From Candidatus Woesearchaeota archaeon (lineage in GTDB: Archaea > Nanobdellota > Nanobdellia > Woesearchaeales > UBA583): DNA of 32,000 bases. This document shows, in pieces, positions 670 through 31,483 of the stretch (position 1 is the stretch's first letter; every line of letters begins with the position of its first letter). The notes beneath the pieces were generated by a model that saw only the letters and a program-made list of their open reading frames with translations, was not told where the DNA came from and searched no databases. The stretch is from NCBI GenBank assembly GCA_965205335.1, contig OZ242164.1, forward strand, positions 209,905-241,904. The letters run 5' to 3'. Both the position numbers and the translations under genes were made by a program.

Positions 670-731
670 AAGTCTAGTATTTACTCTCAGTGAAAATTCA
701 ACTATAAATAACAAAGAGCATTCCCTTTTAT

Positions 732-4642: not shown

Positions 4643-6283
4643 CTACAATTTCTTTATCGCAAAATCATATGCTCTCAAGTAGTTCTCAATAAACACAGAC
4701 CAATCATATTTTAAAGCAAGTTTCTTTGCAACACCTCTGCGAAAAGACTTTGCTTCATCACTCTCTTGCAAAAAACTATCAAGCATAAAACATAAATCAT
4801 CAATAGCACATTCCTCACTGCAATTAATCCTATCAAGCACTAAAGCACCTGAACACAAACTCCCATGAACTGACTCAATAGTTTGCCCAAAACCTGCAAG
4901 ATTAGAAGTTATCGCAGGAACGCTAAACGAAATGCTCTCAAGAGGTGTATATCCCCAAGGTTCATAATATGACGGAAAAACTCCTAAATCACAGCCTGAA
5001 ATAAACTCATAATATTCTCTATTAAAAGCCCTATCAGAACCATCAAGAAGAACAGGAATTAAAATATTTCTAACCTTATCATCACTACAATTCTCTAGTC
5101 CATTCTCTCTTAAACACCTTATAATATCATGCTCTTCTATGCAATGTGTTGAAAGAGGAGTTTTAAAACCTCCATCAATTTTCTCTTCATTATAATTTGC
5201 AGTTGAATCAAATATCTGAGAATTTAACTCAAAATCCCCTATGATTACAATAAAAAAATTCAACACCTCCATCTCTGACTTTTCATTCTTTAACTTTTCA
5301 TTTAACCTTGAAAGAGCCTTTATGTAAATATCATATCCCTTGTTCCTAAACTCATTTCTCCCACTTGTATAAAAAATCTTAGTTTTGCTTGTATCAATCT
5401 CATAAAAATTACTAAAATACAATTCAATAAAATGATTTGTTATTTCCCTTGAATTCCTGAACTTCCCATCACCCCATGCTAATCCATCAACATTCTGATT
5501 ATTAAACCCATTGTACAATAAAACATCAGCTTCCTTTCCATATAATGCTCTTGCCTCATTATTTGTAACATCTGATACTGTTGTAAAACAATCCGAAATA
5601 TGAGCCAAAACTCTCTCTGTCTGATGCTTAGTATGAACACCCATATCATAAGCATATCTCTGAGGATTTATTACATTCTGTATACTTCTAAGATCTTCCC
5701 CATGAGATGAAATTGTTCTTCCAAGCATCGTTGCATGGGTTGTAAAAATGCATTTGAACTTACGAATTTCCTTCATTTTAAAATATAATATAGTCCCTCC
5801 ACTCATCCATTCATGAGCATGAACTAATACATTTTCATCATTATCCTCATTTAATTTCTCAATAACTATTCCACAGCACCACGACCAGAGAATTGCTTCA
5901 TCATAATCATGCCAGTCTGAATTCAAAGAATCAATCTCATATCTCTTCCATAACTTCTTTTTAATATCATCTATATTCTCACTATAACTCATATAATCAA
6001 CTAATATAACATTTTTATCTCCTGAAATATCTGTTGTTCCAAAATGAACCTTTATTCCCATAGACTCTAATTCCTTTACTTTTTCAGTTAGATTTTGAGG
6101 AACTTCTGTTTCATAAAAAGTCTTTTTTGAAGACTCAAAGTAAGGACCTACCATATAATAATCTCTAACTTTATCCACAATATATGGAACTTTAGAACTT
6201 ATGACTGTAAAAATTCCCCCTTGCTTATTGCAAACTTCCCAAGAAACCTCATACAATACAGAATCTATTCTCATACAATCCAA
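4643..6283 (-). CDS. Glycogen(starch) synthase, eukaryote-type GT3 family
   Basis: LYEVSWEVCNKQGGIFTVISSK, HAHEWMSG, IFTTHATMLGR and CFTTVSDVT line up with the GT3 (Gsy/GYS) N-terminal and catalytic motifs. The 6283 start is a TTG. The ATG at 6274 (MRIDSVLYEV) lies about 26 nt from a TATA (rc of 6294-6306) and is the likelier start. Confidence 0.85.
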   Translation of the reverse strand: MDCMRIDSVLYEVSWEVCNKQGGIFTVISSKVPYIVDKVRDYYMVGPYFESSKKTFYETEVPQNLTEKVKELESMGIKVHFGTTDISGDKNVILVDYMSYSENIDDIKKKLWKRYEIDSLNSDWHDYDEAILWSWCCGIVIEKLNEDNDENVLVHAHEWMSGGTILYFKMKEIRKFKCIFTTHATMLGRTISSHGEDLRSIQNVINPQRYAYDMGVHTKHQTERVLAHISDCFTTVSDVTNNEARALYGKEADVLLYNGFNNQNVDGLAWGDGKFRNSREITNHFIELYFSNFYEIDTSKTKIFYTSGRNEFRNKGYDIYIKALSRLNEKLKNEKSEMEVLNFFIVIIGDFELNSQIFDSTANYNEEKIDGGFKTPLSTHCIEEHDIIRCLRENGLENCSDDKVRNILIPVLLDGSDRAFNREYYEFISGCDLGVFPSYYEPWGYTPLESISFSVPAITSNLAGFGQTIESVHGSLCSGALVLDRINCSEECAIDDLCFMLDSFLQESDEAKSFRRGVAKKLALKYDWSVFIENYLRAYDFAIKKL

Positions 6284-14794: not shown

Positions 14795-15610
14795 TTAAAC
14801 TCTACTTTTAAAAATTGAAGAAAAAGGAATCGATAATAAAAACAAACCAATCAAATTCATTACAATAGTTGCTCCTACTGGCAAATCAAAAAGATATGAA
14901 CTAAAAATTCCAAGATAAATCCCTAATACACATGCAACACACGAAATCACAATTGACGCCTTAAACGACTTACCAATTCTTAACCCGATTAACGCTGGAA
15001 TAACCAACAAAGCCGAAACCAATAAAATACCTACCACCCTAACAGAAATAACAACAGTAATGGCGCAAAGAACAATAAACACCTTATCTATTAACTCAAC
15101 TTTCTTATTTCTAACCTTTGCAACATCAGAATTAAAAGCCAAATAAAGCAAACTCTTATAATTAAAAAAATAAAAAATACAAATCAGAATTAAAACAATT
15201 ATTGCAATAACAATATCAAAATAACTAATTGTAAGGATTGAACCAAACAAATATGAAAAAATATCAGTATTCATCTTATCTGCAATACTAATTAATATCA
15301 ATGCAAAAGCCAACCCAAAAGACAAAATAAGAGCAATAGCACTCTCCCCATACAACTTTAACTTATTCACTAATCTATCAATTCCCAAAGATGCAATAGT
15401 TACAAATCCCAAAGCCATAAGCATTGGATTAAAACCTGTTACAAACCCAAGAGCAATCCCCCCAAACGAAGCATGTGCAAACGAATCCCCTAAAAGAGAT
15501 AACCTTTTCAAAATCAGAAAAACTCCAATCAACGCTGTAGCAATCCCTATAACTAACCCTCCAAGCAATGCCCTTTGCATAAAACCATAAGATAAAACCT
15601 CAAAAACCAT
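14795..15610 (-). CDS. znuB: Metal ABC transporter permease (ABC-3 / ZnuB-TroCD family)
   Basis: 271-aa polytopic membrane ORF whose start lies 1 nt from the upstream ATPase stop. The family call rests on operon context and overall ABC-3-like hydrophobic pattern. Confidence 0.8.
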   Translation of the reverse strand: MVFEVLSYGFMQRALLGGLVIGIATALIGVFLILKRLSLLGDSFAHASFGGIALGFVTGFNPMLMALGFVTIASLGIDRLVNKLKLYGESAIALILSFGLAFALILISIADKMNTDIFSYLFGSILTISYFDIVIAIIVLILICIFYFFNYKSLLYLAFNSDVAKVRNKKVELIDKVFIVLCAITVVISVRVVGILLVSALLVIPALIGLRIGKSFKASIVISCVACVLGIYLGIFSSYLFDLPVGATIVMNLIGLFLLSIPFSSIFKSRV

Positions 15611-15611
15611 T

Positions 15612-16313
15612 TTAACTATGTCCTCTATGCTTATGACTTAACTCATGAAAACTATCCCCATAAGTAGAATATAACAATGAGTGAATATTCTTAGCATCAT
15701 CAACACATACCTTCTTATCATGAATACATACTATCTTCGTAAAATAACTTGAAATCATCCCTGTATCGTGTGTAACAAAAAGAATAGTCAAATTCCTTTC
15801 CTTATTTAACTTCTTTAACAATTTATAAAAATCCTCCTGAGTCTTTGTATCAACCCCAACCGTTGGCTCATCTAAAATTAGAATATCAGGATTAGACAAT
15901 AATGACAAAGCAATCATTACTCTTTGAGCCTGTCCTCCCGACAAATTCTTAAACTGCTTATCCTCAAAATTTGAAACTCCCAGACTCTTCAAAACATCAT
16001 CTCTTAAAGAACAATCACAACACTCCAAATCTAAAATCTCCTTAACCCTTGCAGGAAAATTAGAATCATAATTAAATTTCTGAGGAATATAAGATAACCT
16101 ACCATTAACCTTAATACTTGATTTCTTTGCCCTAAGCAAACCTAAGATTATCTTAACAAGAGTAGATTTCCCTGTCCCATTTGAACCAATAACTGCAACC
16201 AAATCTCCTTTATTAATTGAAAAGGAAACATTCTCTAAAACATTCTCCAAATCATTAAAAGAATACGTCAAATTCCTTACACTAATTATTGTTTTCACTG
16301 TTTTTCTTTTCAT
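15612..16313 (-). CDS. znuC: Metal ABC transporter ATP-binding protein
   Basis: Walker A (GSNGTGKST), ABC signature (LSGGQAQRV) and Walker B (LILDEPT). Confidence 0.9.
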   Translation of the reverse strand: MKRKTVKTIISVRNLTYSFNDLENVLENVSFSINKGDLVAVIGSNGTGKSTLVKIILGLLRAKKSSIKVNGRLSYIPQKFNYDSNFPARVKEILDLECCDCSLRDDVLKSLGVSNFEDKQFKNLSGGQAQRVMIALSLLSNPDILILDEPTVGVDTKTQEDFYKLLKKLNKERNLTILFVTHDTGMISSYFTKIVCIHDKKVCVDDAKNIHSLLYSTYGDSFHELSHKHRGHS

Positions 16314-16386
16314 TTTCTAACTCTAACAAATCCAAAGCAAATTAAAAAGATATTGATTAACCATTTTAATATAAAACCTTCAAAAA

Positions 16387-17391
16387 TCAATTCATATGAC
16401 AATCAAGACCTATCTTCAAATTATTTAAATTACCTCTCATAATTGAAAAATAATCCTCATTCTCATTCATCTTTAAAGGATTTAATTCCAGAACTTCTGC
16501 TCCAATATCATTTGCAATAGTCTGTGCAGTTTTAGGATCTAACTGTCCTTCTGAGAAAATATACTTTAAATTATTCTCTCTTGCAACATTTATAACTCTT
16601 TGAATTGTTTTAGGTGAAGGTTCACTCTGGGGAGAAAACCCAGAAATACTAACCTGTTCAAATCCATACTCATTAGCCAAATATCCAAAAGCTTTATGAT
16701 TTACAATTATTTTATCATTACTACAATTTGAAAGCCCCAAATCAAATTCCTCTTCCAACTCTCTAAGTTTCTCTAAATAAACTTCTGAATTCTCAGAATA
16801 AATCTGTGCATTTTGGGGATACATCTCACTTAAATGCTCTTCAATTTCCCTTGTCATCTTTTCCATATTATGAATTGATAACCAAACATGTGGATCATAT
16901 TCCTCACTATCATATTCATTAGATTCTTTGTCATCATGTCCTTGTTCATCCTCTTCACTTTCATCATATCTATGTTCATCTTCATCCAACTCCTTATTAT
17001 AATCTTCATTCTCTCCAACTAATTCTAACGTATGAGTTGCATCAATCATTTTAATGTCTGAATTTGCATCAAGTATCTTTTCTTCTATATTTTCAAAACC
17101 CCCACCCATTACAATAAAAACATCTGCTTTTGACAAAGAAACAACCTGAGTTGGCGTTGGTTCATAACTATGAGGATCAACTCCCACTGGAACTAAAACC
17201 AATACTTCCGCACTATCAAGAGCAATTGCTTCTGTAATCTCCTGAACTGGATAAAACGTCACAACAAAAATCTGATTATCCAATGCAACCTCTGAACTAT
17301 CCAAACTTGAAGAATTTACCTGAGCACACCCTGCAAAAAATAAAACAACAAACGCAAATAACAAACCCAACAAAACAAATTCTCTTTTCAT
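16387..17391 (-). CDS. znuA: Metal-binding lipoprotein, cluster A-I solute-binding protein (ZnuA-like) with acidic/His-rich loop
   Basis: Signal peptide with lipobox (FFAGC). DPHVWLS and HKAFGYL are motifs of TroA/ZnuA-type SBPs. The D/E/H-rich insert (DEDEHRYDESEEDEQGHDDKE) is typical of zinc-specific ZnuA. Confidence 0.8.
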   Translation of the reverse strand: MKREFVLLGLLFAFVVLFFAGCAQVNSSSLDSSEVALDNQIFVVTFYPVQEITEAIALDSAEVLVLVPVGVDPHSYEPTPTQVVSLSKADVFIVMGGGFENIEEKILDANSDIKMIDATHTLELVGENEDYNKELDEDEHRYDESEEDEQGHDDKESNEYDSEEYDPHVWLSIHNMEKMTREIEEHLSEMYPQNAQIYSENSEVYLEKLRELEEEFDLGLSNCSNDKIIVNHKAFGYLANEYGFEQVSISGFSPQSEPSPKTIQRVINVARENNLKYIFSEGQLDPKTAQTIANDIGAEVLELNPLKMNENEDYFSIMRGNLNNLKIGLDCHMN

Positions 17392-17410
17392 ATATACTAA
17401 TGATTTCGTT

Positions 17411-17422
17411 AAGTTTATAAGT
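17411..17422. promoter_or_regulatory. Near-palindromic TATA element (AAGTTTATAAGT) apparently shared by divergent znuA and fur/zur genes
   Basis: Its centre (~17417) lies 26 nt from the znuA ATG (17391, minus) and 31 nt from the fur-family ATG (17448, plus). No other TATA is present in the 56-nt intergenic gap. Confidence 0.45.
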
Positions 17423-17443
17423 ATTATTAATTCTCATTATCAG
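17423..17443. promoter_or_regulatory. Candidate Fur/Zur operator (ATTATTAATTCTCATTATCAG)
   Basis: An AT-rich segment resembling the Fur-box half-site (..AATCATTATC) lies between the TATA and the fur-family start codon. Confidence 0.3.
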
Positions 17444-17447
17444 TAAG

Positions 17448-17813
17448 ATGAACCAAAGCAGAAATACAATCCAGAAAAAAATAATAGAACAGGAAATAGA
17501 CAACATAAAAACTTTCTTTTCAGCAGAAGACCTTTTAGAAAAAGTGTCTCAGAAAAATAGAAAAATAGGAATTGCAACCATCTATCGGCACTTAAAAACT
17601 TTAAGAAAAAACGAAGAAATATATTCCTACTCCTGTTTGGGGAAAACCGTTTACTCAAATACTAAAAGAAGTCACTGTCATTTCTTATGCACAAAAACAG
17701 GAAAAGTGATTCACTTTGACATAAAAAACTTAGATTTTCTAAAAGATAACATCCCAGGAGAAATTGAAAGTTTTCAGATTGAAGTTAAAGGAATTCACAA
17801 AGATTCAGAATAA
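17448..17813 (+). CDS. Fur-family metalloregulator (likely Zur)
   Basis: 121 aa. It has a winged-helix segment (IGIATIYRHLKTLRKNEEI) and HCHFLCTKTG, like the Fur HHHxxC motif. It is divergent from the metal uptake operon. Confidence 0.8.
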   Translation: MNQSRNTIQKKIIEQEIDNIKTFFSAEDLLEKVSQKNRKIGIATIYRHLKTLRKNEEIYSYSCLGKTVYSNTKRSHCHFLCTKTGKVIHFDIKNLDFLKDNIPGEIESFQIEVKGIHKDSE

Positions 17814-18782: not shown

Positions 18783-19532
18783 TTATCTCATCTCATTCCA
18801 TTTCTTAGTTGAATACTTCTCTTCTGAAAGTTCCTTTGCTCTTATAATCTCTTCCTCACTATAATCCCTAATTTCCAGATTATACCTCTTTCTAAAAGAA
18901 TTCTCCAAAGCATTACAAACAGAATCAAAACCAACATCAACTTCATCACTAATCGAAGTTACCCTCTTCTTAACAGAACTTATTAATTTATCTGCAATCT
19001 TCTCCTTCCCAACACTCAAAAGAGAAAACATCTTGTCAACATCAACCTTAAACAAAAGAGTTCCGTGCTGAAGAAGTATCCCTTCCCTTCTTGTCTGAGC
19101 ACTTCCTGAAATCTTTCTTCCATTAACTATAATATCATTTATCGGAGAAAAAACTGCCTTTATCCCAATTTCAGACAAAGCATTAATTAACACATTGCAA
19201 ATCTCCTCATACGAGTCGCGAATATTTTTGCTAAAATAACTATCAGGAGCAATAACTGAATACGTAATCTCACCTAGTACATCATGATAAACTGCTCCTC
19301 CTCCAGTTCTTCGGCGAACAATATCAACCCCTTCTCTAATACATTCCTCCTCATTTACCTCAATATGATAACCTTGAAAATAACCAATAGAAATTGCAGA
19401 AGGTTTCCATGTATATATCCTGATTGTAGGATTTGACTTTTTAGAACGAACACTCTCGCAAATTGCCTCATCCAAAGCCATATTCATATAAGCATCAAAT
19501 TCCTTTTGCCTTATGAACCTAAACTTATTCAT
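18783..19532 (-). CDS. lplA: Lipoate-protein ligase A, catalytic (BPL_LplA_LipB) domain only
   Basis: RRTGGGAVYHD and GRKISGSAQ motifs. At 249 aa it lacks the C-terminal accessory domain, which is encoded by the upstream overlapping gene. Confidence 0.9.
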   Translation of the reverse strand: MNKFRFIRQKEFDAYMNMALDEAICESVRSKKSNPTIRIYTWKPSAISIGYFQGYHIEVNEEECIREGVDIVRRRTGGGAVYHDVLGEITYSVIAPDSYFSKNIRDSYEEICNVLINALSEIGIKAVFSPINDIIVNGRKISGSAQTRREGILLQHGTLLFKVDVDKMFSLLSVGKEKIADKLISSVKKRVTSISDEVDVGFDSVCNALENSFRKRYNLEIRDYSEEEIIRAKELSEEKYSTKKWNEMR

Positions 19533-19815
19533 TTGAAATCACCTCTAAAATTGCATTTGCAATATCATCTGAACTAACCCCAATTAAACTAGCATTTCTG
19601 CTTGAAAGAGCCCCATCAATCTTATCCTTTAACTCACCGCAAGAAATATCAGAACGAACGCCATTTAATACACTCTCAATATCAGTTATTGTTTCCTCTG
19701 GATGCAAAAAAAAATCCCCAGTAATCTTAATTTTCTCAATCTTAGAATCAAAATCCAAATCAATTCTAAACAACTTTCCTCCCTCAACCTTTTTCGTTAT
19801 AGTTTTTAAAACCAT
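19525..19815 (-). CDS. Lipoate-protein ligase C-terminal accessory domain protein (LplB-like)
   Basis: KIKITGDFFLHPEETITDIESVLNG is the Lip_prot_lig_C signature. The track start at 19911 is a TTG inside the lipA start region. The ATG at 19815 is preceded by a TATA on the minus strand. Its stop overlaps the lplA ATG (ATGAATAA). Confidence 0.7.
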   Translation of the reverse strand: MVLKTITKKVEGGKLFRIDLDFDSKIEKIKITGDFFLHPEETITDIESVLNGVRSDISCGELKDKIDGALSSRNASLIGVSSDDIANAILEVISNE

Positions 19816-19902
19816 AACTTTGCATATTCCATATATTTTATAAAATTTTCCAACTAACCCAAAGTAAAAGAACTTTATAATATCTAAAAAAATAAAAAGC
19901 AT

Positions 19903-20775
19903 ATGAAACAAAAGCCAGACTGGATAAGATACAAACTTTCTCTAAACAACGACTATTCCAAAATTAAAAATGCTTTAAGAAAAAGAGGATTAGTTACTGT
20001 ATGCGAAGAGGCAAGATGCCCAAACATTTCACAGTGCTGGGACAAAGAAGGAACTGCGACATTCATGCTCTTAGGGGATACATGCACAAGAGGATGTAAA
20101 TTCTGCGCCATTAAAACAGCAGTAAAAGGAAAGGAAATTGATAAAGATGAACCCTCAAAATTAGCCGATGCCATAGAAGAAATGGGGCTTGACTATGCAG
20201 TTTTAACAGTTGTTGACAGAGATGACTTAGAAGATGGAGGAGCAAACCACATAGCAAATTCAATCAGAAAAATAAAAGAAAAATCAGAAGCATTTGTTGA
20301 AATCTTATCAGGAGACTTTGCAGGAGATTTAGACAACCTAAAAATAGTTATTGACTCAAACCCAGACGTATTCGCTCATAATATTGAAACTATAAAAAGA
20401 CTTCAAAAAAAAGTAAGAGATCCAAGAGCTAATTATGAACAATCACTAATGATACTAAAACAAGCCAAGAAAATAAATCCTAACATAATAACAAAATCAT
20501 CAATAATCCTTGGATTTGGGGAAAATGAATTAGAAATATTCAAAACAATGATTGATTTAAGAAAAGTTGGCTGTGACATTTTAACACTTGGACAATATCT
20601 AAAACCAAAAAACTCAATACTTGATGTGTATGAATACATAACTCCTCAGAAATTCAATGACTACAAAATAATAGGAGAGAAATTAGGATTCAAATATGTT
20701 GCAAGTGCCCCATTTGTCAGGTCATCATATATGGCAGGGGAATTATTTGTTAAAAATATTTTACTAAACAAATAA
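19903..20775 (+). CDS. lipA: Lipoyl synthase (radical SAM)
   Basis: It has the N-terminal auxiliary-cluster motif CEEARCPNISQC and the radical-SAM motif CTRGCKFC. A TATA at 19871-19880 lies about 25 nt upstream. Confidence 0.95.
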   Translation: MKQKPDWIRYKLSLNNDYSKIKNALRKRGLVTVCEEARCPNISQCWDKEGTATFMLLGDTCTRGCKFCAIKTAVKGKEIDKDEPSKLADAIEEMGLDYAVLTVVDRDDLEDGGANHIANSIRKIKEKSEAFVEILSGDFAGDLDNLKIVIDSNPDVFAHNIETIKRLQKKVRDPRANYEQSLMILKQAKKINPNIITKSSIILGFGENELEIFKTMIDLRKVGCDILTLGQYLKPKNSILDVYEYITPQKFNDYKIIGEKLGFKYVASAPFVRSSYMAGELFVKNILLNK

Positions 20776-21072: not shown

Positions 21073-21972
21073 CTAATCATAATGCTTTGTAGGAATCACA
21101 AAATAACCACAACCTAAATTTATATTATTATTTCCTGAATAATCCTCTGGCAAAGCAGGAAAACTCTCATTTATTATCTCAAACTCTTCATTCTCAGTCC
21201 TCCATTCCTGAATAATAACACCACTCACAGAATCTGTTGCAGAATCCGAAACTAAATAATTTATATTTCTCACAAAAAAATTTCCATACTTTGATGCAAG
21301 TCTTGAAAAAAAAGTCTGAACTCTATTTACTCTAACTCCAATTACTTCTCCTGCATCTCCAAAAAATCCTCCACTCAAATCAGGTGAATTAGGGAGTCTG
21401 TATATAAAATAATATACCATCAAATTCTCCCCTTCCAAAACTGATAAATCTGAAAGAACACCCTGAGACAAAGTTACATCATTCAAATTAGATGTCTCTT
21501 GTTCCTTAAACAAATCCTCATAATCTTCATCACCATAAATCTTCTCAAGTTTAGAACCCAAATCAGATATATCATTCTCTGCTTTTGCAAAACCACAAAA
21601 TACACATATACTTTTTCCATAAGAATTTGCCGCCATAATATCTCTTCCATTTGCCATCTTATAATAACAATCCTTAGACAACTCTGCCAAAGGTTCTACA
21701 TTTTTATTTCTTATCTCAATAGTCTTTGAAGGACAAGTACCTGCTAATGTCTTAATAAGAATTCCCTTAGGTTCTGTCAATCTATTAAAAAAAGTTTCAT
21801 CAGGTTTCATATTATCCACAAAAAAATTACACTCAATTAAAGATGACTCATATTTTGAATCTCCTATCTGAAAACTAATGAATATTACCAAAACAATAAA
21901 TGAAAATATAGCAATTATTATAAGTAGAATCTTTGAATAAACTACATTTCCTTTTCTATCTAACTTATTCAT
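21073..21972 (-). CDS. Hypothetical membrane-anchored/secreted protein
   Basis: An N-terminal TM/signal segment (ILLIIIAIFSFIVLVIFISF) is followed by a ~260-aa soluble region with several Cys. The ATG at 21972 overlaps the ftsY stop (ATGAATAA). The longer 21999 start is a TTG. Confidence 0.55.
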   Translation of the reverse strand: MNKLDRKGNVVYSKILLIIIAIFSFIVLVIFISFQIGDSKYESSLIECNFFVDNMKPDETFFNRLTEPKGILIKTLAGTCPSKTIEIRNKNVEPLAELSKDCYYKMANGRDIMAANSYGKSICVFCGFAKAENDISDLGSKLEKIYGDEDYEDLFKEQETSNLNDVTLSQGVLSDLSVLEGENLMVYYFIYRLPNSPDLSGGFFGDAGEVIGVRVNRVQTFFSRLASKYGNFFVRNINYLVSDSATDSVSGVIIQEWRTENEEFEIINESFPALPEDYSGNNNINLGCGYFVIPTKHYD

Positions 21973-23221
21973 CTTCAATATCAAATAACTGCCTTGCAAT
22001 TAATTTTGCATCAAATTCTAATAAATCATCATAACTCTGTCCATTGCCGAGAAAATATATAGGCCTATCTATTGAATACGCTGTTGTCACAATAGAGCCC
22101 GGCTTTTCATCCGTATCAACCTTTGTTAGAATTATACCATCAATCCCAACTCCCTTATCAAATAAATAAATCTGCTCTGTTAAATCATTTCCTGAAATTA
22201 AGTCCCCAATAAAAACTGCCATCTGAGAATTAGCTACCCTTCTAATTTTTTGCAGTTCCATCATTAAATTTGAATTATTGGGCATTCTTCCAGCAGTATC
22301 AATTAAAACAACATCTATTTTCTTTGCTTTTGCATGCTCAATTGCATCATACGCTACTGCTGCTGGGTCTGAACCTTCTTTGTGCAATATTAACCTAAAA
22401 TCCAAATTCTTTGAATGTTCCTCAAGTTGTTCAACAGCAGCAGCCCTAAAAGTATCAGATGCAGCAACCACAACAGACAAACCATTCTCCTTTAAGAAAT
22501 TAACAATCTTTGCAATTGTTGTTGTCTTTCCCGTGCCATTCACACCAAGAATTAAAATTTTAACAGGAGACTCTTCCTCTCTCACTTCATTCAACCTTTC
22601 TAAAAAATCCCCTTCCCTATCTTTAAGAATTGTTTCAACTTCCTCCTCTAACACACTCCTGATTTTTTGAGACAACTTAAACCTGTTAAAAGAATTATCC
22701 ACAAGTTCTTCTTTTAATCTCTGCCCTATTTTTTCAACCACTTCATAAGCTATATTAATCTCAAGCAAAAACAACTCAAGTTCTAACCAGATTCTATCAA
22801 AATCCTCCTCCTTTATCTTCTTTAACTTCAACTTTGTAAATACTTTTTTTAGAAACCCTTTTTTCTCTTCCTCTAAAACCTCTTGTTCTTCTTGCGTATT
22901 CTCCATGTCCTCTTCTATTTCTGCCAACTCCTCATCATCATAAGGCTCACCTACTTCATCTTTGGTTCTTGACCTTTTTCTATTCTGTCTCTTTGGTTCT
23001 TTTTTCTCATCAGAAACATCCTCTGAATCTTTTACATAATCATCCTCAAAATCTTCACTTTTCCTTTTTCCAAATATCCTCGACAAAATCCCCCTTTTCT
23101 CTTCTGGATTATCAGAAATTTCATCAACTGATACCTCCACTTCTTCATCAGGATTTTCCTCAATTATCTCCTCTGATTTCTCAAAAACATTCTTTAATTT
23201 GTCTTTTATCTTTCCAAACAT
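21965..23221 (-). CDS. ftsY: Signal recognition particle receptor FtsY with acidic N-terminal domain
   Basis: SRP GTPase motifs are G1 (GVNGTGKTTT), G3 (DTAGR) and G4 (TKVD). The N-terminal ~130 aa are D/E/K-rich. A TATA on the minus strand at about 23246-23256 lies about 30 nt upstream. Confidence 0.95.
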   Translation of the reverse strand: MFGKIKDKLKNVFEKSEEIIEENPDEEVEVSVDEISDNPEEKRGILSRIFGKRKSEDFEDDYVKDSEDVSDEKKEPKRQNRKRSRTKDEVGEPYDDEELAEIEEDMENTQEEQEVLEEEKKGFLKKVFTKLKLKKIKEEDFDRIWLELELFLLEINIAYEVVEKIGQRLKEELVDNSFNRFKLSQKIRSVLEEEVETILKDREGDFLERLNEVREEESPVKILILGVNGTGKTTTIAKIVNFLKENGLSVVVAASDTFRAAAVEQLEEHSKNLDFRLILHKEGSDPAAVAYDAIEHAKAKKIDVVLIDTAGRMPNNSNLMMELQKIRRVANSQMAVFIGDLISGNDLTEQIYLFDKGVGIDGIILTKVDTDEKPGSIVTTAYSIDRPIYFLGNGQSYDDLLEFDAKLIARQLFDIEDE

Positions 23222-23235
23222 CTAATACTTCCAAA

Positions 23236-23281
23236 CCTATTACATTTATAAGTCTTAAGATTAACTTACACGAATTAATTT
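23236..23281 (+). repeat. Left copy of a ~46-nt direct repeat (contains the ftsY TATA box)
   Basis: 23241-23280 and 26701-26740 match at 35 of 40 ungapped positions (hand alignment). A further CCTAT matches if a 2-nt indel is allowed. Confidence 0.7.
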
Positions 23282-23483
23282 AGAAATCTATTTTGAACAA
23301 TTTCAAAGCATATATAAAAAATTTATACTTATTTGTAACAAAACACTGTATATTTAAGTTACAATACCTCCTTCACTTCAACTTGTGAAATAATTACAAA
23401 AGTTTTCTCCCTATACTTCTATCAGCATATCATTATGCTATGTTATTGGAATTTCTTCTCCTATCCCAATATCTCTTCTGGTA

Positions 23484-24353
23484 TCACTTACTCTTCTTGA
23501 ACTTTATCTCCCAGAATTTGTTCTTCGTGTCAATTATGCATGTTTCCCCATATGGAATTGATATGTTAGGATTTATATGTCCAATCTTCTGGTTCATTAT
23601 AACAGGAATGCGAAAGTCCTTGAAAAACTCCCTTAAATAATCATTTATGTCTTCACTTGCCTCTCTGAAATCTCCTAAAATAACTCCCTTGACTGAATCA
23701 AATTTTCCTGCAAGTTTCAACTGCCATAAAATGTCATACACCCATGGTGATTCGCCCGTTAATTGTTCAAAGAATAAAATTTTCCCTTTTGTGTCAATCT
23801 CATAGGGAGTGCCAAGAGTTCTTCCAACGAGGATCGTGTTACCTCCAGTTATCTCTGCCTTTGCATATCCTTCAACAATCACACTATCATTTCCTTTTAT
23901 ACCAATCCTGTAATCTTCTCTATTAAGAGCCTTTTGAAGATAGTGAACAGTTTCCATACCTGGTCCTCTGGTAAAAAGACCTTTTGATGCTATGTTGGGT
24001 CCATGTATACACCTAACGTCTGTCCTTGAGTAAAGAGCCAAAAGCAGTATAGTTATATCACTGAACCCAATAAGTGTCTTAGGACTACTGATTTTATGAT
24101 AATTAATACTCTCAAGTATACTTACAGCTCCCATCCCTCCTCTTACTGGGAAAACAATATCTGACTTAGGGTCTGCAAGGGCTTTGTTGATTTCCTCTAT
24201 TCTTCTCTTAGGAGTTCCCGCATAATACAAGTATTTTTGGGTGATACCTTTCAAGTTCTTACATTCAAAACCAAGTCTGCGAACATTCTCCATTGCATTT
24301 TTCAACTTCTTATCCGTTATACTCCCTGAAGGGGCAATTAAATGCACTTTCAA
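23484..24353 (-). CDS. Peptidase S66 (LD-carboxypeptidase LdcA / MccF-like serine peptidase)
   Basis: Nucleophile motif GFSDITIL, acidic motif ILFFEQL and KIGHINPN (catalytic His region). It uses a TTG start (or the GTG at 24347) overlapping the upstream gene's TGA (TTGA). Confidence 0.85.
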   Translation of the reverse strand: MKVHLIAPSGSITDKKLKNAMENVRRLGFECKNLKGITQKYLYYAGTPKRRIEEINKALADPKSDIVFPVRGGMGAVSILESINYHKISSPKTLIGFSDITILLLALYSRTDVRCIHGPNIASKGLFTRGPGMETVHYLQKALNREDYRIGIKGNDSVIVEGYAKAEITGGNTILVGRTLGTPYEIDTKGKILFFEQLTGESPWVYDILWQLKLAGKFDSVKGVILGDFREASEDINDYLREFFKDFRIPVIMNQKIGHINPNISIPYGETCIIDTKNKFWEIKFKKSK

Positions 24354-25486
24354 ATTCGAGTCACCTCTTCAAAATTATGATCTCGTCTGGGAATTCTCTC
24401 ACTCAACACACTCCCAAGAGGAATTGGATGTAGTGCACCTCCCAAACCATTACCATGTTGGGGACTTCTCTTCCAGTCATCCCATCCAATGATGTGGTAA
24501 CTTCTACGTTCTTTTTGTCCAATTTGAGCCCTCCTTTCCACTGCATCAACAATATCTGGGTTAATATTAAGAATAACTTCAGTGTAACTCCCCTCTTTTC
24601 CTCTTATCCCATAAAGACTGCCTGCCCCTGAACCATTAAACTCAAGTACATTAGGTCCTCTGAAATCCACTGAACCGTAAATAATTTTTCTACCTGGAGG
24701 AGAATCCAGAAAACGTTCAACAACATCTACTTGATTCCTATCACGTGGTTCATCTATATAAACCTCTGAAACTCTCTCACTACCATAACCACCTTCCATG
24801 CAATTCACTCTTACCCTATTATGTATCCTTCCGTCTAATATAAAGTACCTAATTTCCTTGCTAGCAGGTACAAATCCCTCAAAACAATAATCTCCTAATC
24901 TTTCGCAACTATCAAAATATCCAGACACCTGCTCTGGAGAATCCAGAAATACAATTCCTTCTCCTCTTTCTCCTATTTGTGGCTTTGCTACAACTCTCTG
25001 TCCCGACCTGAGTATTCTCTCAAGGTCTTTGCGATTCTCAGGTTCCACAGAAGGCATGTATGGAAGATAAGGCCTAAGTACCTTCTTCTGTACATTCTTT
25101 AAACTGTACCAATTAACTTCAGGTGGATTAACCATCAGCCTATGATTCTTCGATAACATTTGAATTGCTCTTAAAAAATCCTTTGGCTTGCTTAAATCAC
25201 GCGTACCCCGCACAGTATCCTGCCCATATCCTTGCATAAAAAAAATGTCTCCTTCCGGTACACAATTTCTTCCCACTTGCTTAAACTTCCCATCATCTAA
25301 CCTGTGTATTCCACCAAAAATACCTCTCTTGGGATCCACAACATCATCTGAAAAAACAACTCTCATATCATGCCCTCTATTCTCAAACTCTTTGTATTTC
25401 CCAAGAATATACTCATAATCTCCGTTCACTTTCCCCTTAAAATAAGGTTCCAATCTTCTGTCTATAGACATAGTAACTCTGTTCAT
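24350..25486 (-). CDS. ATP-grasp family ligase (RimK-like fold), function unknown
   Basis: RVVAKPQIGERGEGIVFL (P-loop-like ATP-grasp segment), FEGFVPASKEIRYFILDGRI and GSVDFRGPNVLEFNGSG fit the ATP-grasp order. The protein is Arg/Gly/Pro-rich, unlike its neighbours. Confidence 0.7.
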   Translation of the reverse strand: MNRVTMSIDRRLEPYFKGKVNGDYEYILGKYKEFENRGHDMRVVFSDDVVDPKRGIFGGIHRLDDGKFKQVGRNCVPEGDIFFMQGYGQDTVRGTRDLSKPKDFLRAIQMLSKNHRLMVNPPEVNWYSLKNVQKKVLRPYLPYMPSVEPENRKDLERILRSGQRVVAKPQIGERGEGIVFLDSPEQVSGYFDSCERLGDYCFEGFVPASKEIRYFILDGRIHNRVRVNCMEGGYGSERVSEVYIDEPRDRNQVDVVERFLDSPPGRKIIYGSVDFRGPNVLEFNGSGAGSLYGIRGKEGSYTEVILNINPDIVDAVERRAQIGQKERRSYHIIGWDDWKRSPQHGNGLGGALHPIPLGSVLSERIPRRDHNFEEVTRI

Positions 25487-25647
25487 TCTTCTTCTCTAAA
25501 AATCTCCGAAATCAATCATTTTTGTTAAACTACACATTCTCTATACTCAGTCAATAAGCATCATATACTAGAATGTGCAATTTATACATTATAAGTATTC
25601 TTCATATAATATAATTTTTATGTATTAAATACTTGGAAATTTTGAAT

Positions 25648-25660
25648 AAACTTATAAATA
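25648..25660 (+). promoter_or_regulatory. BRE/TATA promoter element (AAACTTATAAATA) for the tandem-Lrp gene
   Basis: Same core as 9360-9372 and 14182-14194. The ATG at 25682 follows after about 20 nt. Confidence 0.55.
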
Positions 25661-25681
25661 AAGTAAAAATATACAAAATAT

Positions 25682-26650
25682 ATGATGAATTTAAAAATTA
25701 AGAAAATTTTATATATGTTATCGGACAATTCAAGAATCAGTTCAAAGAGCATATCAAAAGAAGTAAAGATTACGCAACAAGGCGTAAGTTATCAAATATC
25801 CAAACTTAAAAATACGGGTATAATCAAAAATTTCAGTCTTGTGGCAGATTCCGCAAAATTCGGATACAGCAATTTCTGCGTACTTATAAGGCTGAAAAAA
25901 TACTCAAGAAATTACATCAGAGAGATTATCCGAGAACTCCAAAAGTACAAAGAAATTATTGCAATTAATATTTTGTTTGGAAACTACGACATTTTCCTGA
26001 AATTCTCAACTCACAACTCATCTCAGTTCAACAAAATTCTAAGAGAAATTATTAATAATAATTCCAATAAATTAATAGATTATACAATCCTGACACAAGT
26101 AGTTGTGTATCATTTTTCAAGAGGCTATCTCTCAAGAAGAAAAACAATAAAGCAAGCAATAATTTCAGGAGACAGGGAAATTGTCAATCTGGACAGAATG
26201 AATGTTGAGATAATAAACAAACTAAATGAGAATTCAAGAAAGAATTTCTCCCACATAGCAAATGAACTAAACACAACGTCAAAAACCATAATATTAAGAG
26301 TGAAAAACTTAGAAAGAAAAAAAGTAATAAGAGAATATGGAATAAACATAAACCATACAAAAATAGGCATCAAGAAATACCTTCTATTCATAAGTTTCAA
26401 TTTCATGCATTCAAAAGGGGAAAATATACTTGCGGACTTTTCACACAAATGCCCTAACATAATAGAATTAATAAAAACATTTGGAAGATGGGATGCAATT
26501 CTAGTGATAGAAGTACTAAAAGACGAGGATTTCAGAGAAGTTCTCAATATAATTAAAGAGAAATTCGCAGATTCCATCAAGTATTATGATTTCCTTGAGT
26601 CAGAGGAAACAATAGCATGGAAATATCTTCCAAAATTAAATTCCAACTGA
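25682..26650 (+). CDS. Tandem (duplicated) Lrp/AsnC-family transcriptional regulator
   Basis: It has two HTH segments (ILYMLSDNSRISSKSISKEVKITQQGVSYQISKL and IINKLNENSRKNFSHIANELNTTSKTIILRVKNL). Each is followed by a RAM-like beta-alpha-beta-beta-alpha-beta region. It is divergent from the ATP-grasp operon. Confidence 0.8.
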   Translation: MMNLKIKKILYMLSDNSRISSKSISKEVKITQQGVSYQISKLKNTGIIKNFSLVADSAKFGYSNFCVLIRLKKYSRNYIREIIRELQKYKEIIAINILFGNYDIFLKFSTHNSSQFNKILREIINNNSNKLIDYTILTQVVVYHFSRGYLSRRKTIKQAIISGDREIVNLDRMNVEIINKLNENSRKNFSHIANELNTTSKTIILRVKNLERKKVIREYGININHTKIGIKKYLLFISFNFMHSKGENILADFSHKCPNIIELIKTFGRWDAILVIEVLKDEDFREVLNIIKEKFADSIKYYDFLESEETIAWKYLPKLNSN

Positions 26651-26693: not shown

Positions 26694-26741
26694 CTATAAT
26701 TACATTTATAAATTTTGAGATTAACTTATACGGATTAATTT
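26694..26741 (+). repeat. Right copy of the ~46-nt direct repeat
   Basis: See 23236-23281. This copy has no gene positioned to use its minus-strand TATA. Confidence 0.7.
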
Positions 26742-26821: not shown

Positions 26822-27328
26822 ATGGATGAGAAAGATAAAAAAGTTAATCTAAAAGTAAAAAATAGGATTGAAAGGTTAAGTAACCCTAAGTTAAAAGAGG
26901 ATTTACTAACCCTCATAAAGATATTGAGGATTGGTTATGGGATAAAACCTGTAAGACCAAGAACCATAGAAGGATATGTTAACGCTCTAATTCAGCTTAG
27001 TAAATTCAAACCAAACCAGAAATTTCTCGATTATGATAAAAAAGACTTGTTAGAATATTTTAGTTCAATAGATGAAAAAGGAATTTCAAAAAATAGTTTA
27101 AATTTATACAAAATTAAAATAAAAAAATATTTTACGTGGTTATATAGAGAAAATAATTTATGTGGGAGAGAAGAAATACCAGAAATAGTTTCATGGATAA
27201 AAATATCAAAGCAAATAAGAAAAACTAAATATATTGAAACTTCTTTTTTAACAGGACGGTTCAAAAAGGGAATAAATGAAAAGTTGGAAAATCATTCAGA
27301 ACAAATAAAAAAAACACTATCCCTCTAA
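26822..27328 (+). pseudogene. Tyrosine recombinase/integrase, N-terminal SAM-like (core-binding) domain only
   Basis: IEGYVNALIQLSKF, KKDLLEYFSSI and SKNSLNLYKIKIKKYFTWLY fit the integrase N-terminal four-helix domain. The ORF ends after 168 aa. Only ~90 nt remain before tRNA-Thr, so no catalytic RHRY domain can be encoded here. Confidence 0.55.
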
Positions 27329-27417: not shown

Positions 27418-27489
27418 AGCTACTGCTGGGAATTGAACCCAGGACCTGCACCTTACCAAGGTGCCGTTCTACCACTGAACCACAATAGC
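27418..27489 (-). tRNA. tRNA-Thr (anticodon GGT)
   Basis: Hand-folded on the minus strand as GCTATTG-TG-GTTC-AGTGGTA-GAAC-G-GCACC-TTGGTAA-GGTGC-AGGTC-CTGGG-TTCAATT-CCCAG-CAGTAGC-T. No CCA is encoded. The palindromic TATA GATTTATAAATC lies upstream. Confidence 0.9.
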
Positions 27490-27578
27490 GTTATTAACCT
27501 ACAGATTTATAAATCTCTCTCACCTTAAATATTTAGTGGATTTAAAAATAATTTATACCTAAACCAACATTATAGGGA

Positions 27579-28121
27579 TTAATTCAAAAATTTACTTTTA
27601 ATAATATCAAAACACATATAAAAAAATTCATCCTTACTTGGAACAAAGTCCCGTCTATTCGAGTTGTAATACTCTATTATTTCACTTATTGGAATTAATT
27701 TTATCCCCTCAACTTCCTCATTAGTATTAATTATTCTCTCATCACTTATTCGCACAAAATAAATATACCTAAACTCACTCTCATACCAGTTTGGAATTAC
27801 TTCCTCATCAAAATAGGCTATATGTTCTTCCCCTAAACCTTCCTCTGAGATTTTAATTCCTAATTCTTCTAAGCATTCCCTTACAGCAGCCTGCTTAGGT
27901 TCTTCTCCTGAGTCCACATGCCCAGATACTGATTCTGTATATTTAAGGGGATACTTAACCTCATCTGAACGTTTCTGCAAAATAATCTTATTCTCATCAG
28001 TTACAAACCAAACCACAACTGCTCTGTGGAGTAGCCCCTTTTCATGTATCGTACTATAATCCTTAGACTCTCCTATTAGTTCATTATTCTCATTAACTAT
28101 ATCAATTCTTGGCCACTGCAT
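27579..28121 (-). CDS. Nudix hydrolase (IPP-isomerase-type-1-like)
   Basis: Nudix box GHVDSGEEPKQAAVRECLEELGI. The preceding LLHRAVVVWFV..ILQKRS resembles the Idi type 1 / Nudix N-terminal strand pattern. Confidence 0.85.
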   Translation of the reverse strand: MQWPRIDIVNENNELIGESKDYSTIHEKGLLHRAVVVWFVTDENKIILQKRSDEVKYPLKYTESVSGHVDSGEEPKQAAVRECLEELGIKISEEGLGEEHIAYFDEEVIPNWYESEFRYIYFVRISDERIINTNEEVEGIKLIPISEIIEYYNSNRRDFVPSKDEFFYMCFDIIKSKFLN

Positions 28122-28163: not shown

Positions 28164-28829
28164 TCATTTATACCTTATAAGTTCATTATCTACAAGCACA
28201 TAATGCTGTAATTCAACTGGTCTCCAATCATCCTCTATTAAATCCGCATTAAGCCATTTTGAAAGTTCCTCTGCATTGCCTATTGTTGCAGAAAGTCCAA
28301 TTATTCTAATCTTAGGATACTTGGCTTTAAAGATTGACAAAAGAATTTCAAGAGTTGGCCCTCTCTTCTCATCATTTATCAAATGAATCTCATCAGCAAT
28401 AACAAGCCCCAAATCTTCAAGAATTTCTCTATTACGCCTAATTAATGAATCCAATTTTTCCGCTGTTAAAATCAGCAAATCATAATCATAATTATATTTC
28501 TCATTCTGAATCTCTCCAACCGAAACTCTTATCTTTACTTTTTCCCCATAAACTTCCTTAAACTCCTTATATTTCTCCCAAGCCAAAGCTTTTAGAGGAA
28601 CTATATAAATTACTCTCTTTTGTTTGTTTAATATTTCATCAAGCATTGCAAGTTCTGCAATAAGAGTTTTCCCTGATGCTGTCGGAGAGCATACTACCTG
28701 ATTTTTATTATTATCAAAAAGTCCCCTTTTAATTGATTTCTCCTGAGAAGGTCTTAGTTTCTCTATTTTAAGTTCTTTCAGAAATCCACGAATATTCTCA
28801 GGGATTTTCAGAATAGTTTCATCAGTCAT
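28164..28829 (-). CDS. Hel308/Ski2-like superfamily 2 helicase, first RecA domain only (truncated or split gene)
   Basis: Motifs Q/I (LRPSQEKSI, SPTASGKT), II (ADEIH) and III (SATIGN), then DWRPVELQ. The ORF stops after 221 aa, and the next gene downstream is the unrelated Nudix gene. Confidence 0.8.
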   Translation of the reverse strand: MTDETILKIPENIRGFLKELKIEKLRPSQEKSIKRGLFDNNKNQVVCSPTASGKTLIAELAMLDEILNKQKRVIYIVPLKALAWEKYKEFKEVYGEKVKIRVSVGEIQNEKYNYDYDLLILTAEKLDSLIRRNREILEDLGLVIADEIHLINDEKRGPTLEILLSIFKAKYPKIRIIGLSATIGNAEELSKWLNADLIEDDWRPVELQHYVLVDNELIRYK

Positions 28830-30163: not shown

Positions 30164-31483
30164 ATGAGGAAAAAAAATTTATTGATAGTATTAATCTTAT
30201 TATTTCTTGCTTTTTTAACTGGTTGTCAGTTTGAAGAGTCTAAACAAAAAGAGGATTTAATTCCTGATAATCCGCCAATTAACGAAGAAACAAGTGGCAT
30301 TGATGTAAAAAAGAATATCTTTAACGAAGAGGAAATAAGAAATTCAGTTATCGATGAAATTAATAATTTAAGACTAGAAAATAATCTTACCTCTATGATT
30401 TATAATGAAAATCTTGAAAACCGAGCAGAGAAATGGGCTTTATATCTTAAAAACACAAATAGTTTTGAAACGAATGAATTTGAAAAAAATTTCGCCCAGA
30501 CTATTCATACAATACCTTATAGTAATAATGTGAAGAATTGTAGAAGAACTAAAACAAACAAAGAAAATGTGGAATGTCTGATGAGAAGTTTTGAAAACTC
30601 TAAGAATATAAAAAATATTTTGAGTTACAACCAATTCGGAGTTGGAGTTGAGTCAGTCTTAGATGATAATGGAATTTACAATGTTTTATATGTTTTCTAT
30701 TTTAACAATAATCTATCTACTATCTCAGACACATACAACCTGAATTTCTCAGAGATTAGAGATAGTGTTTCTCATAAGATAAAAAAAGAAAGAGAGAATA
30801 GAAATCTGCACTTTGTAAGAAGAAATTATAAATTAGATAAAATTGCAGATATAAAAGCAGAAAAACTAATTAATGAAGGGTTTCATCATACCGATGAAGA
30901 AGGGAAAAACATTGATGATATTTTAAAGGAGAACAACTTTTTCTACATAACAGCAGGAGAGAACTTATTTTATACATCCTTGATAGGAAATGAGTCTAAC
31001 GAATATCTTGGAAACCTGTCCGTTTCGAAATGGTTAGAAAGTCCAGGTCACAGGAGTTTGGTTTTAAACAGAGATGACTGGCTATATAGTGATATGGGAA
31101 TTGGCTTGAGTTTAGATAACAAAAATAATCTTTTAAATTTTGTTCTAATCTTTGTCACGCTATCAAAAAAAGGTACAATAGAAGCAGAAAAAGATTACTG
31201 TTACACAATTGAATTATACGATAAAGATCTTTTTGAAGAAGGAGTCTTTGAAGAAGTAGATGTGAATGTTATAATAAATTCTAAGAGAAAAATCTCAAAG
31301 ATGTTTTTAGTTGATGACTCATCTGAAGCAGAAAATTGCTGGGACGGTAACGTGGACGATATTAAAGAATGGAGAAATATCAAAAATTTAAATGAAACCT
31401 TGAAAATCAAAAAAGGATATTCACTTCTGTTAAGAATGAAAAGGGATTCAGAAATAAATTATGTTATTAATTATATTAATTGA
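30164..31483 (+). CDS. Secreted lipoprotein with CAP/SCP (YkwD-like) domains and an extra C-terminal domain
   Basis: Signal peptide with lipobox (LAFLTGC). The second domain shows the CAP signature (AGENLFY...WLESPGHRSLVLN...MGIG). A degenerate first CAP-like segment is present (INNLRLENNL..NRAEKWALYL). Confidence 0.7.
   Translation: MRKKNLLIVLILLFLAFLTGCQFEESKQKEDLIPDNPPINEETSGIDVKKNIFNEEEIRNSVIDEINNLRLENNLTSMIYNENLENRAEKWALYLKNTNSFETNEFEKNFAQTIHTIPYSNNVKNCRRTKTNKENVECLMRSFENSKNIKNILSYNQFGVGVESVLDDNGIYNVLYVFYFNNNLSTISDTYNLNFSEIRDSVSHKIKKERENRNLHFVRRNYKLDKIADIKAEKLINEGFHHTDEEGKNIDDILKENNFFYITAGENLFYTSLIGNESNEYLGNLSVSKWLESPGHRSLVLNRDDWLYSDMGIGLSLDNKNNLLNFVLIFVTLSKKGTIEAEKDYCYTIELYDKDLFEEGVFEEVDVNVIINSKRKISKMFLVDDSSEAENCWDGNVDDIKEWRNIKNLNETLKIKKGYSLLLRMKRDSEINYVINYIN

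Follow-up and report, generated by a model that had tools for sequence, protein, structure and literature searches.

One question raised by this 32,000-nt stretch of a Candidatus Woesearchaeota genome (assembly GCA_965205335.1, contig OZ242164.1, positions 209,905 to 241,904; referred to here as the window) is why a wall-less archaeon carries a serine peptidase of the LD-carboxypeptidase/MccF family (S66) next to an ATP-dependent ligase; namely, whether the two genes form a compositionally foreign module, as a preliminary description had it, or belong to something larger. The S66 gene (23484..24353, minus strand; 289 amino acids, TTG start) lies directly 3′ of the gene for a 378-amino-acid ATP-grasp ligase (24350..25486, minus strand; referred to here as LIG). 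A divergent control region of 195 nt (25487..25681) separates LIG from a plus-strand gene for a fused tandem Lrp/AsnC-type regulator of 322 amino acids (25682..26650). The earlier calls and coordinates for all three genes are correct by calling of open reading frames (ORFs). We find that the locus is a reduced, degenerate copy of a conserved operon of DPANN archaea.

Adjacency of ligase and S66 genes across genomes had been set beforehand as a test of the pairing, and it was borne out in diverged genomes. Related loci in other genomes (numbered L001, L002 and so on) were sampled from both sides, giving 8 genome loci found via the ligase and 7 contexts found from the S66 side. The ligase scan, which covered one genome per species and used the ligase family alone (a 12-sequence set) as the query, returned 8 loci, whose genomes bear the names Pacearchaeota, Woesearchaeota or ‘archaeon’ or, in one case, the label Methanosarcinales. 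Of the 8 ligase-found loci, 7 have S66 directly 3′ of the ligase and 7 have a RimK-type ligase directly 5′ of it; an Asp/Glu-family racemase is present in four and a divergent tandem-Lrp regulator in two. Seen from the S66 side, an intact ligase is directly upstream in 4 of the 7 contexts (L003/L004, L005, L014 and L015), and the others hold an interrupted ligase (L001), a ligase remnant of about 37 amino acids (L002) or no ligase (L016). Pairwise distances of the ligase and S66 proteins correlate across 11 loci (Mantel r = 0.53; 33 of 5,000 permutations reach this r). The adjacency of the two genes is not incidental.

The junction between them is also conserved. In the window, the LIG stop codon and the S66 TTG start share the 4-nt overlap TTGA at 24350–24353 (minus strand ...CGA ATT TGA / TTG AAA GTG...), as first reported, and a Shine–Dalgarno-like GAGGTGA motif (24361–24367) stands 7 nt 5′ of the TTG. 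The 4-nt overlap recurs in L003, L005, L012, L014 and L015. Through it, LIG and S66 are probably translationally coupled.

In its canonical form the operon reads racemase, RimK-type ligase, LIG and S66, preceded, in some loci, by the divergent tandem-Lrp gene. The racemase scores 225 bits against TIGR00035 (asp_race; cut-off 93) and 221 bits against the cysteate racemase CuyB (cut-off 190); it is of the Asp/cysteate type, and neither a MurI-type glutamate racemase nor an alanine racemase. The upstream ligase is RimK/MptN/LysX-like and stays under the equivalog cut-offs; L014 has a DcsG/GshB-like ATP-grasp gene in its place. L002 adds a beta-aspartyl-peptidase-like gene and an ATP-grasp gene with weak likeness to LdmS (Asp-Met ligase). 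Three themes recur among the partner genes: Asp-type acidic residues, D-stereochemistry, and the making of amide bonds with ATP set against peptidases. Neither the ligase subfamily nor the four-gene operon seems to have been described before, and a literature search for ATP-grasp enzymes together with LD-carboxypeptidases in archaea found no match; both enzyme superfamilies and the logic of building and trimming are already known.

Three further observations concern individual loci. A DUF3335 protein, for which NCBIfam gave no match, overlaps the S66 stop codon in one lineage (L003 6855–7448; also L004 and L011) as a fifth operon member. L012 (CAYPCY010000001.1) is labelled ‘Methanosarcinales’, yet its GC content is about 32% and its cluster proteins are 83–87% identical to those of L005 and in this resemble the DPANN loci; its bin or taxon label may be wrong. 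At L001 11722–12763 a second, diverged tandem copy of the module comprises a 5′ fragment of Lrp, the control region and a paralogue of the ligase; the paralogue is 51% identical to the window ligase and runs off the contig end.

At the window site much of this operon has gone. The 32-kb window contains no intact homologue of the racemase or of the RimK-type ligase. What is left of an Asp-type racemase is a pseudogene remnant at 23381..23482 (minus strand) comprising the last 34 codons with two in-frame stops, which tblastn aligns with the C terminus of the L002 racemase (50% identity, E = 6 × 10−7); it indicates that the operon was once larger here. The S66–FtsY interval that contains the stub resembles ordinary spacer. 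The left flank of the window locus and L002 are collinear, and at this site L002 has a larger cluster: window positions 21422–23498 (FtsY and the spacer up to the S66 stop) match L002 8043–5924 with 83% identity, and the collinear stretch runs into the 3′ end of the L002 racemase gene. The loss amounts to about 3.9 kb in comparison with L002.

The surviving ligase gene is itself under weaker constraint than its neighbours. The ratio of non-synonymous to synonymous substitution rates (dN/dS, Nei–Gojobori) is 0.48–0.60 for the ligase and 0.13 for S66 (window versus L001), compared with 0.14 for FtsY (window versus L002) and 0.09 for Lrp. Ligase and S66 have the same synonymous divergence (about 0.5), so the ligase gains about four times more non-synonymous change. 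The window ligase is under relaxed selection, and S66 and Lrp are under strong purifying selection. All catalytic residues are kept in the ligases of the window and L001, the latter being split into ORFs of 61 and 261 amino acids on a contig with a coverage of only 1.79×; in L002 the ligase is nearly gone. The preliminary description was right that ligase and S66 are coupled, and it missed that the pair is what remains of an operon of racemase, RimK-type ligase, LIG and S66.

The identity of the ligase emerges from its family. The window protein alone stays below threshold for PF14398 (21.7 bits versus a cut-off of 26.8, over only about 50 residues), has no match in NCBIfam, and finds nothing better than E = 0.22 in the PDB by phmmer. 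In a word-indexed search of 5.8 billion clusters the only matches were the query and a single relative (61% identity), and repeating that search with the family profile brought no improvement over the single sequence. An exhaustive HMMER search gave 53 proteins at E ≤ 10−3. One of these (P0151, a 797-amino-acid repeat protein with 14 matches to the ligase tail) was judged a low-complexity or repeat artefact and set aside; nearly all of the others are 280–320 amino acids long and match query residues 3–320. With about 50 cluster representatives, the family is small, and it is captured by no curated model.

In a 43-sequence alignment of this family, N120, K130, K168, E211, D274 and N284 are invariant, and P169, G177, R213, R226, G271, F275, E282, G285 and G287 are nearly so. 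The corresponding profile matches Escherichia coli GshB (1gsa) over its full length (E = 1.6 × 10−16), followed by PsnB (2 × 10−10), RimK (about 10−9) and cyanophycin synthetase (2 × 10−5), and 16 of the 43 members match GSH-S_ATP at E ≤ 0.01 (best 3 × 10−8). Window residues K168, R213, R226, D274, E282 and N284 align with GshB K160, R210, R225, D273, E281 and N283, which we take to be ligands of ATP, Mg and substrate. The AlphaFold model depended on the same alignment: two sequences gave a mean predicted local distance difference test score (pLDDT) of 32, and 43 sequences gave 86.7 with a predicted template modelling score of 0.83, residues 1–329 being confident and 330–378 below 50. Foldseek matched the model at probability 1.0 to GshB, PsnB, RimK, LysX/ArgX and DcsG; its alignments to 1gsa, 7drp, 5zct and 5k2m extend over nearly the full length and indicate the three-domain ATP-grasp fold.

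Because family profile, conserved residues and predicted structure agree, we assign the 378-amino-acid protein as a predicted ATP-grasp ligase of the GshB/RimK clade that is an orthologue of neither GshB nor RimK. The ATP-grasp claim of the preliminary description is upheld, but only by way of the family profile and the AlphaFold and Foldseek results. GshB, which joins an amino acid to a small peptide at its C-terminal carboxylate, is the best full-length profile and structural match; it differs from LIG in sharing only about 14% identity, in its wholly different operon context and in the lack of an equivalog-level match (against TIGR01380/PRK05246 the window ligase has no match and the L003 homologue reaches 31–32 bits versus cut-offs of 272–299). 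The window ligase likewise has no match to the RimK models TIGR00768 and PF08443, and BLASTP at E ≤ 0.01 detects no likeness between it and the RimK-type ligase that stands beside its homologues.

The gene thus described falls into two parts. The conserved body (residues 1–320; 24527..25486, minus strand), identified through the HMMER family, the profile and the AlphaFold model, is an unannotated ATP-grasp protein, predicted to be of the GshB/RimK class. Residues 321–378 and the stop codon (24350..24526, minus strand; GC content 0.43) form a lineage-specific C-terminal tail that is predicted by pLDDT to be disordered. This tail is absent from all other family members, whose alignment ends near residues 320–325, and the region 24380–24545 has no DNA similarity to L001.

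The S66 protein is intact, as claimed. It matches PF02016 with 103 bits (cut-off 25) and PF17676 (S66C) with 94 bits (cut-off 23.7), and its Ser98/Glu196/His259 triad is invariant among 33 archaeal and bacterial S66 homologues (alignment A5), the motifs aligning with GYSD, FIED and CCHTHP of MccF. MccF and LdcA are its matches in the PDB (E = 10−23 to 10−18). Both share with it the two-domain S66 fold family and the Ser-Glu-His triad; the window S66 falls into neither orthologous group, however, and belongs to a separate archaeal clade, sharing 46–68% identity with archaeal relatives and no more than 38% with bacterial proteins.

The suspicion of foreign origin came from composition, and the compositional deviation is real. 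GC content is 0.398 for the ligase gene and 0.374 for S66, compared with a mean of 0.315 (standard deviation 0.024) for the other 29 ORFs (z = +3.4 and +2.4), so that the 40–45% first put forward was slightly high. Measured over 2-kb intervals, tetranucleotide distance within the window peaks at 23501–25500. The ligase prefers Arg (10.3%) over Lys (5.3%), as the preliminary description had observed, and its Gly, Ala, Arg and Pro content (28.5%) is the highest in the window. The rise in GC lies mostly in codon positions 1 and 2, with third positions raised by only 1.1 standard deviations in the ligase and 2.6 in S66. Karlin codon bias beyond the amino-acid expectation gives z = 2.9 and 3.8, respectively, among window genes that range up to 17.6. 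Synonymous codon usage of the two genes is ordinary, and the deviation is mostly one of amino-acid composition. At 0.296, the GC content of the Lrp gene resembles that of native genes. The module shows no GC enrichment in nine other genomes, the rise being confined to the window and L001.

A three-way comparison of the window, L001 and L002 puts this local pattern in context. The Lrp genes group the window with L002 (nucleotide identity 0.899, versus 0.831 for L001), whereas the S66 genes group it with L001 (0.879, versus 0.782 for L002), each with 100% bootstrap support. Given these incongruent groupings and a GC rise shared only by the window and L001, it is simplest to suppose that a ligase–S66 cassette was exchanged or recombined among related lineages apart from the Lrp/FtsY backbone. 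Ligase and S66 both fall within DPANN-archaeal clades. Recent horizontal transfer across domains was rejected, the nearest relatives being archaeal, codon usage ordinary and the module not GC-rich elsewhere. ‘Foreign’ therefore holds in the local sense of exchange among relatives, and not in that of a bacterial import. No donor lineage of the cassette was identified.

The regulator and its control region bore out the first account of a fused double Lrp/AsnC protein and a divergent spacer of about 195 nt, by Pfam and NCBIfam searches. Pfam recognizes HTH_24 (residues 2–49), AsnC_trans_reg (67–127) and an HTH_AsnC-type domain (170–211); a second ligand-binding domain, for which there is no Pfam match above cut-off, is suggested by the length of the protein and by an internal repeat in the L005 regulator (L005_reg340). 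The protein is 84–90% identical in L001 and L002 and 30% identical in L005, and the divergent tandem-Lrp regulator is conserved with ligase and S66 in L001, L002, L005, L008 and L012. Of the 6 copies of the control region in the window, L001 and L002, 5 share a conserved half on the Lrp side.

Its two sides carry different promoter elements. On the Lrp side a TATA element (CTTATAAA, 25651–25658) is centred at about −27, as is a TATA-like element of FtsY. The ligase gene has no TATA-like element near −27; the only conserved one on its side (TGTATAAA, 25581–25588) lies at about −98, and a GGAG stands at about −20. This layout is consistent with a leadered transcript, and no Rfam riboswitch or leader RNA matched the inferred leader. 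The ligase operon does lack a canonical TATA, as proposed; the accompanying statement that nearly every other gene has one was too strong, since a TATA element centred between −40 and −18 is found for 11 of the 31 window genes (versus 6% at random positions). L002 has three copies of the Lrp 5′ end with the control region, fronting S66, the LdmS-like ligase, and the racemase/beta-aspartyl-peptidase pair. The extra copies are at 2116–2460 and 4806–5223, one before the LdmS-like gene and one between the beta-aspartyl-peptidase-like gene and the racemase. These copies are consistent with a single regulon, which appears to have been assembled by copying the bidirectional promoter.

What might such an operon do? 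In the mechanism that we propose, the racemase would supply a D-acidic amino acid (D-Asp-like), and both ligases would convert a C-terminal carboxylate into an acyl-phosphate and lengthen a small acidic peptide, or the tail of a protein, leaving an L–D bond at its end. The S66 enzyme, as an LD-carboxypeptidase-type peptidase, would take off the terminal D-residue, and the Lrp regulator would tie expression to amino-acid supply. Ligase and S66 would thus oppose each other, one building and the other removing, and together would determine how much product there is or how long it becomes. In the window organism the synthetic arm seems to be in decay, with the hydrolytic arm and regulator retained. 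Of the functions suggested in the preliminary description, build-and-trim or make-and-resist, the former is the best functional reading, as an inference, and the latter is unsupported. We give an even chance to the explanation taken whole; that is, that the locus is a reduced copy of a build-and-trim operon for D-residue peptides whose synthetic arm is decaying and whose cassette has been exchanged. A wider proposal, possible but in our view improbable, is that wall-less DPANN archaea of the Pacearchaeota/Woesearchaeota type have a dedicated, ribosome-independent pathway that makes and edits a D-amino-acid-terminated acidic peptide or protein C-terminal tail. Its enzymes would be the Asp-type racemase, two different ATP-grasp ligases and an LD-carboxypeptidase, controlled by a tandem Lrp that senses amino acids.

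By analogy, the closest functional precedent would be RimK/RimB (with RimA) of Pseudomonas, in which an ATP-grasp glutamate ligase is co-transcribed with a trimming protease (PMC7343187, PMC11957791). Shared features are a ligase that extends a C-terminal carboxylate together with a trimming peptidase in one operon, and a RimK-family ligase in the archaeal operon. The archaeal trimmer is an S66 serine peptidase, however, whereas RimB is a retropepsin-like aspartic protease. The archaeal operon also has a second, GshB-like ligase and an Asp-type racemase, is associated with Lrp instead of cyclic-di-GMP/RimA, and showed no RpsF-like acceptor in the archaeal loci. Two other known systems resemble parts of the operon. 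The Aslfm operon of Enterococcus and Lactococcus places an aspartate racemase gene beside an ATP-grasp D-aspartate ligase, much as the archaeal racemase adjoins a ligase that would use a D-acidic amino acid. The cyanophycin synthetase/cyanophycinase/isoaspartyl dipeptidase system pairs an ATP-grasp polymerase with a serine peptidase and a beta-aspartyl peptidase, to which the beta-aspartyl-peptidase-like gene of L002 bears a likeness. Unlike these systems, the archaeal loci are without a Mur-type precursor or a CphA-type multidomain synthetase, the profile match to CphA being weak (E = 2 × 10−5).

Several points weigh against the build-and-trim proposal. No acceptor gene, whether for a small carrier or a precursor, recurs near the clusters. 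The D-residue and L–D-bond logic is drawn from family names rather than from active-site analysis, and the substrate is putative. The window ligase may be non-functional, with its dN/dS of about 0.5, its read-through tail and the split copy in L001. Racemase and RimK genes could lie elsewhere in the 1.2-Mb genome. Finally, S66 stands alone in L016 and has outlived the ligase in L002, which suggests that it has a role independent of the ligase.

This last point leads to the main rival, in which S66 would be an LdcA-type muramoyl-tetrapeptide carboxypeptidase that harvests D-Ala and tripeptides from bacterial wall debris, the racemase would convert the salvaged D-amino acids, and the ligases would be accessory or unrelated. 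It is the published genome-survey reading of the S66 gene in Pacearchaeota, where these genes are annotated as muramoyl-tetrapeptide carboxypeptidase and taken to feed on bacterial cell walls (PMC11537232), and it is favoured by the murein lytic transglycosylases encoded in Pacearchaeota and Woesearchaeota (PMC8204110). Scavenging also accounts for the retention of S66 where the ligase is missing (L016) or reduced to a remnant (L002), and is in line with the strong purifying selection on S66 in the window. However, the protein reaches only 123 bits against the LdcA equivalog NF008424 (cut-off 378), and bacterial LdcA-like proteins are only 33–38% identical to it. The racemase is of the Asp/cysteate type and not an Ala or Glu racemase, and no peptide importer is present among the annotated window ORFs. 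Scavenging also leaves unexplained the tight apparent coupling to two ATP-dependent ligases that is conserved in most genomes, and we consider it unlikely.

A second alternative accepts the decay and carries it further: the ligase would be non-functional here, only S66 and the regulator would matter, and the adjacency would be a historical leftover. The contrast between the dN/dS of the ligase and the 0.09–0.14 of its neighbours fits this picture, as do the 58-residue disordered read-through tail, the loss of the racemase, and the broken or vestigial ligases of L001 and L002. Yet the 378-codon frame is unbroken, the invariant catalytic residues are all present in both the window and L001, dN/dS remains below 1, and the stop/start overlap and the Shine–Dalgarno-like motif of S66 are preserved. 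We consider this alternative unlikely.

The idea of a ligase that makes a toxic peptide, or an aminoacyl-nucleotide antibiotic, with S66 as MccF-like self-immunity, draws on the fact that MccF immunity proteins are the best PDB sequence matches of S66 (E about 10−23). At 289 amino acids, however, S66 is shorter than MccF (336–371), and the HMMER match, a sequence comparison, comes in two stretches that leave MccF residues of about 146–198 and query residues 128–157, the interdomain region, unaligned. An MccB-type adenylyltransferase, a precursor and an exporter were all missing from Pfam scans of 25 window ORFs and from the related loci, and the genes that accompany the pair in the operon encode a racemase and a RimK-type ligase. 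We regard this resistance reading as very improbable. A reading of the locus as a defence system was dropped, there being no PADLOC hit.

It is just as hard to credit that the ligase is a graspetide macrocyclase acting on a ribosomal precursor with S66 as leader or tail peptidase, although PsnB, CdnC and AMdnB rank among its top structural and profile matches, because GshB is the best full-length match with the N-terminal domain included, racemase and RimK partners are ill-suited to a cluster for ribosomally synthesized and post-translationally modified peptides, and the absence of a precursor gene (within 2 kb of 13 clusters there is no small ORF that is both conserved and free-standing, the recurring ones shadowing conserved genes) weakly refutes it. 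A LysW-like carrier was also considered and is unsupported, as no conserved small ORF lies near the 13 clusters.

The borders of the module carry traces of rearrangement. A 43-nt direct repeat, 88% identical between 23239–23281 and 26699–26741, brackets the ligase, S66 and Lrp genes. It belongs to a spacer element upstream of FtsY, designated X, whose first copy occupies 23239..23346. The left copy is in one piece up to 23346–23360 and is orthologous to the racemase–FtsY spacer of L002. The right copy is split by 844 bp into copy 2a (26699..26741, 43 nt, just past the Lrp stop codon; local alignment score 66, versus a shuffle maximum of 43) and copy 2b (27570..27665), which is about 78% identical to 23266–23360 (score 94, versus a shuffle maximum of 47) and overlaps the 3′ end of a NUDIX gene. 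The intervening segment holds a 168-amino-acid N-terminal (SAM-like) fragment of a tyrosine recombinase (26822..27328, plus strand; Pfam, PHROGs phrog_1) and, adjoining it, tRNA-Thr(GGU) (27418..27489, minus strand). Neither an integrase catalytic domain nor a split C-terminal half of the spindle-shaped virus (SSV) type was found in the scanned window ORFs, and tblastn gave no phage or plasmid relatives of the ligase. The repeats and the integrase fragment record past rearrangement; they do not show a mobile island.

Elsewhere in the window, a DEAD/ResIII helicase ORF of 221 amino acids (28164–28829, minus strand) has the N-terminal domain only, with the NUDIX gene following directly, and may be truncated. 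A metal ATP-binding cassette transporter of the ZnuA/ZnuB/ZnuC type with a divergent Fur-family regulator occupies 14795–17813, and a 439-amino-acid protein with a CAP (cysteine-rich secretory protein) domain is encoded at 30164–31483. Glycogen-type genes (GT4, GH57 and amylo-1,6-glucosidase-like; 163–3823) and a pair of lipoate ligase and lipoyl synthase genes (18783–20775) stand out for so small a genome.

The analysis defines a small ATP-grasp family outside the curated models, and the operon is directly testable with four recombinant enzymes. The window is a worked example of gene-by-gene pathway decay, with a racemase stub, a relaxed ligase, and a retained peptidase and regulator, and its GC anomaly would reflect cassette exchange among relatives, not transfer across domains. 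If the wider proposal of a dedicated pathway is true, it would point to a previously unrecognized D-amino-acid peptide metabolism in archaea and would recast the ‘muramoyl-tetrapeptide carboxypeptidase’ genes that are now read as peptidoglycan scavenging. The coupling of S66 to a ligase in most of the genomes examined suggests that these archaea may run an endogenous D-amino-acid peptide cycle instead of, or besides, such scavenging.

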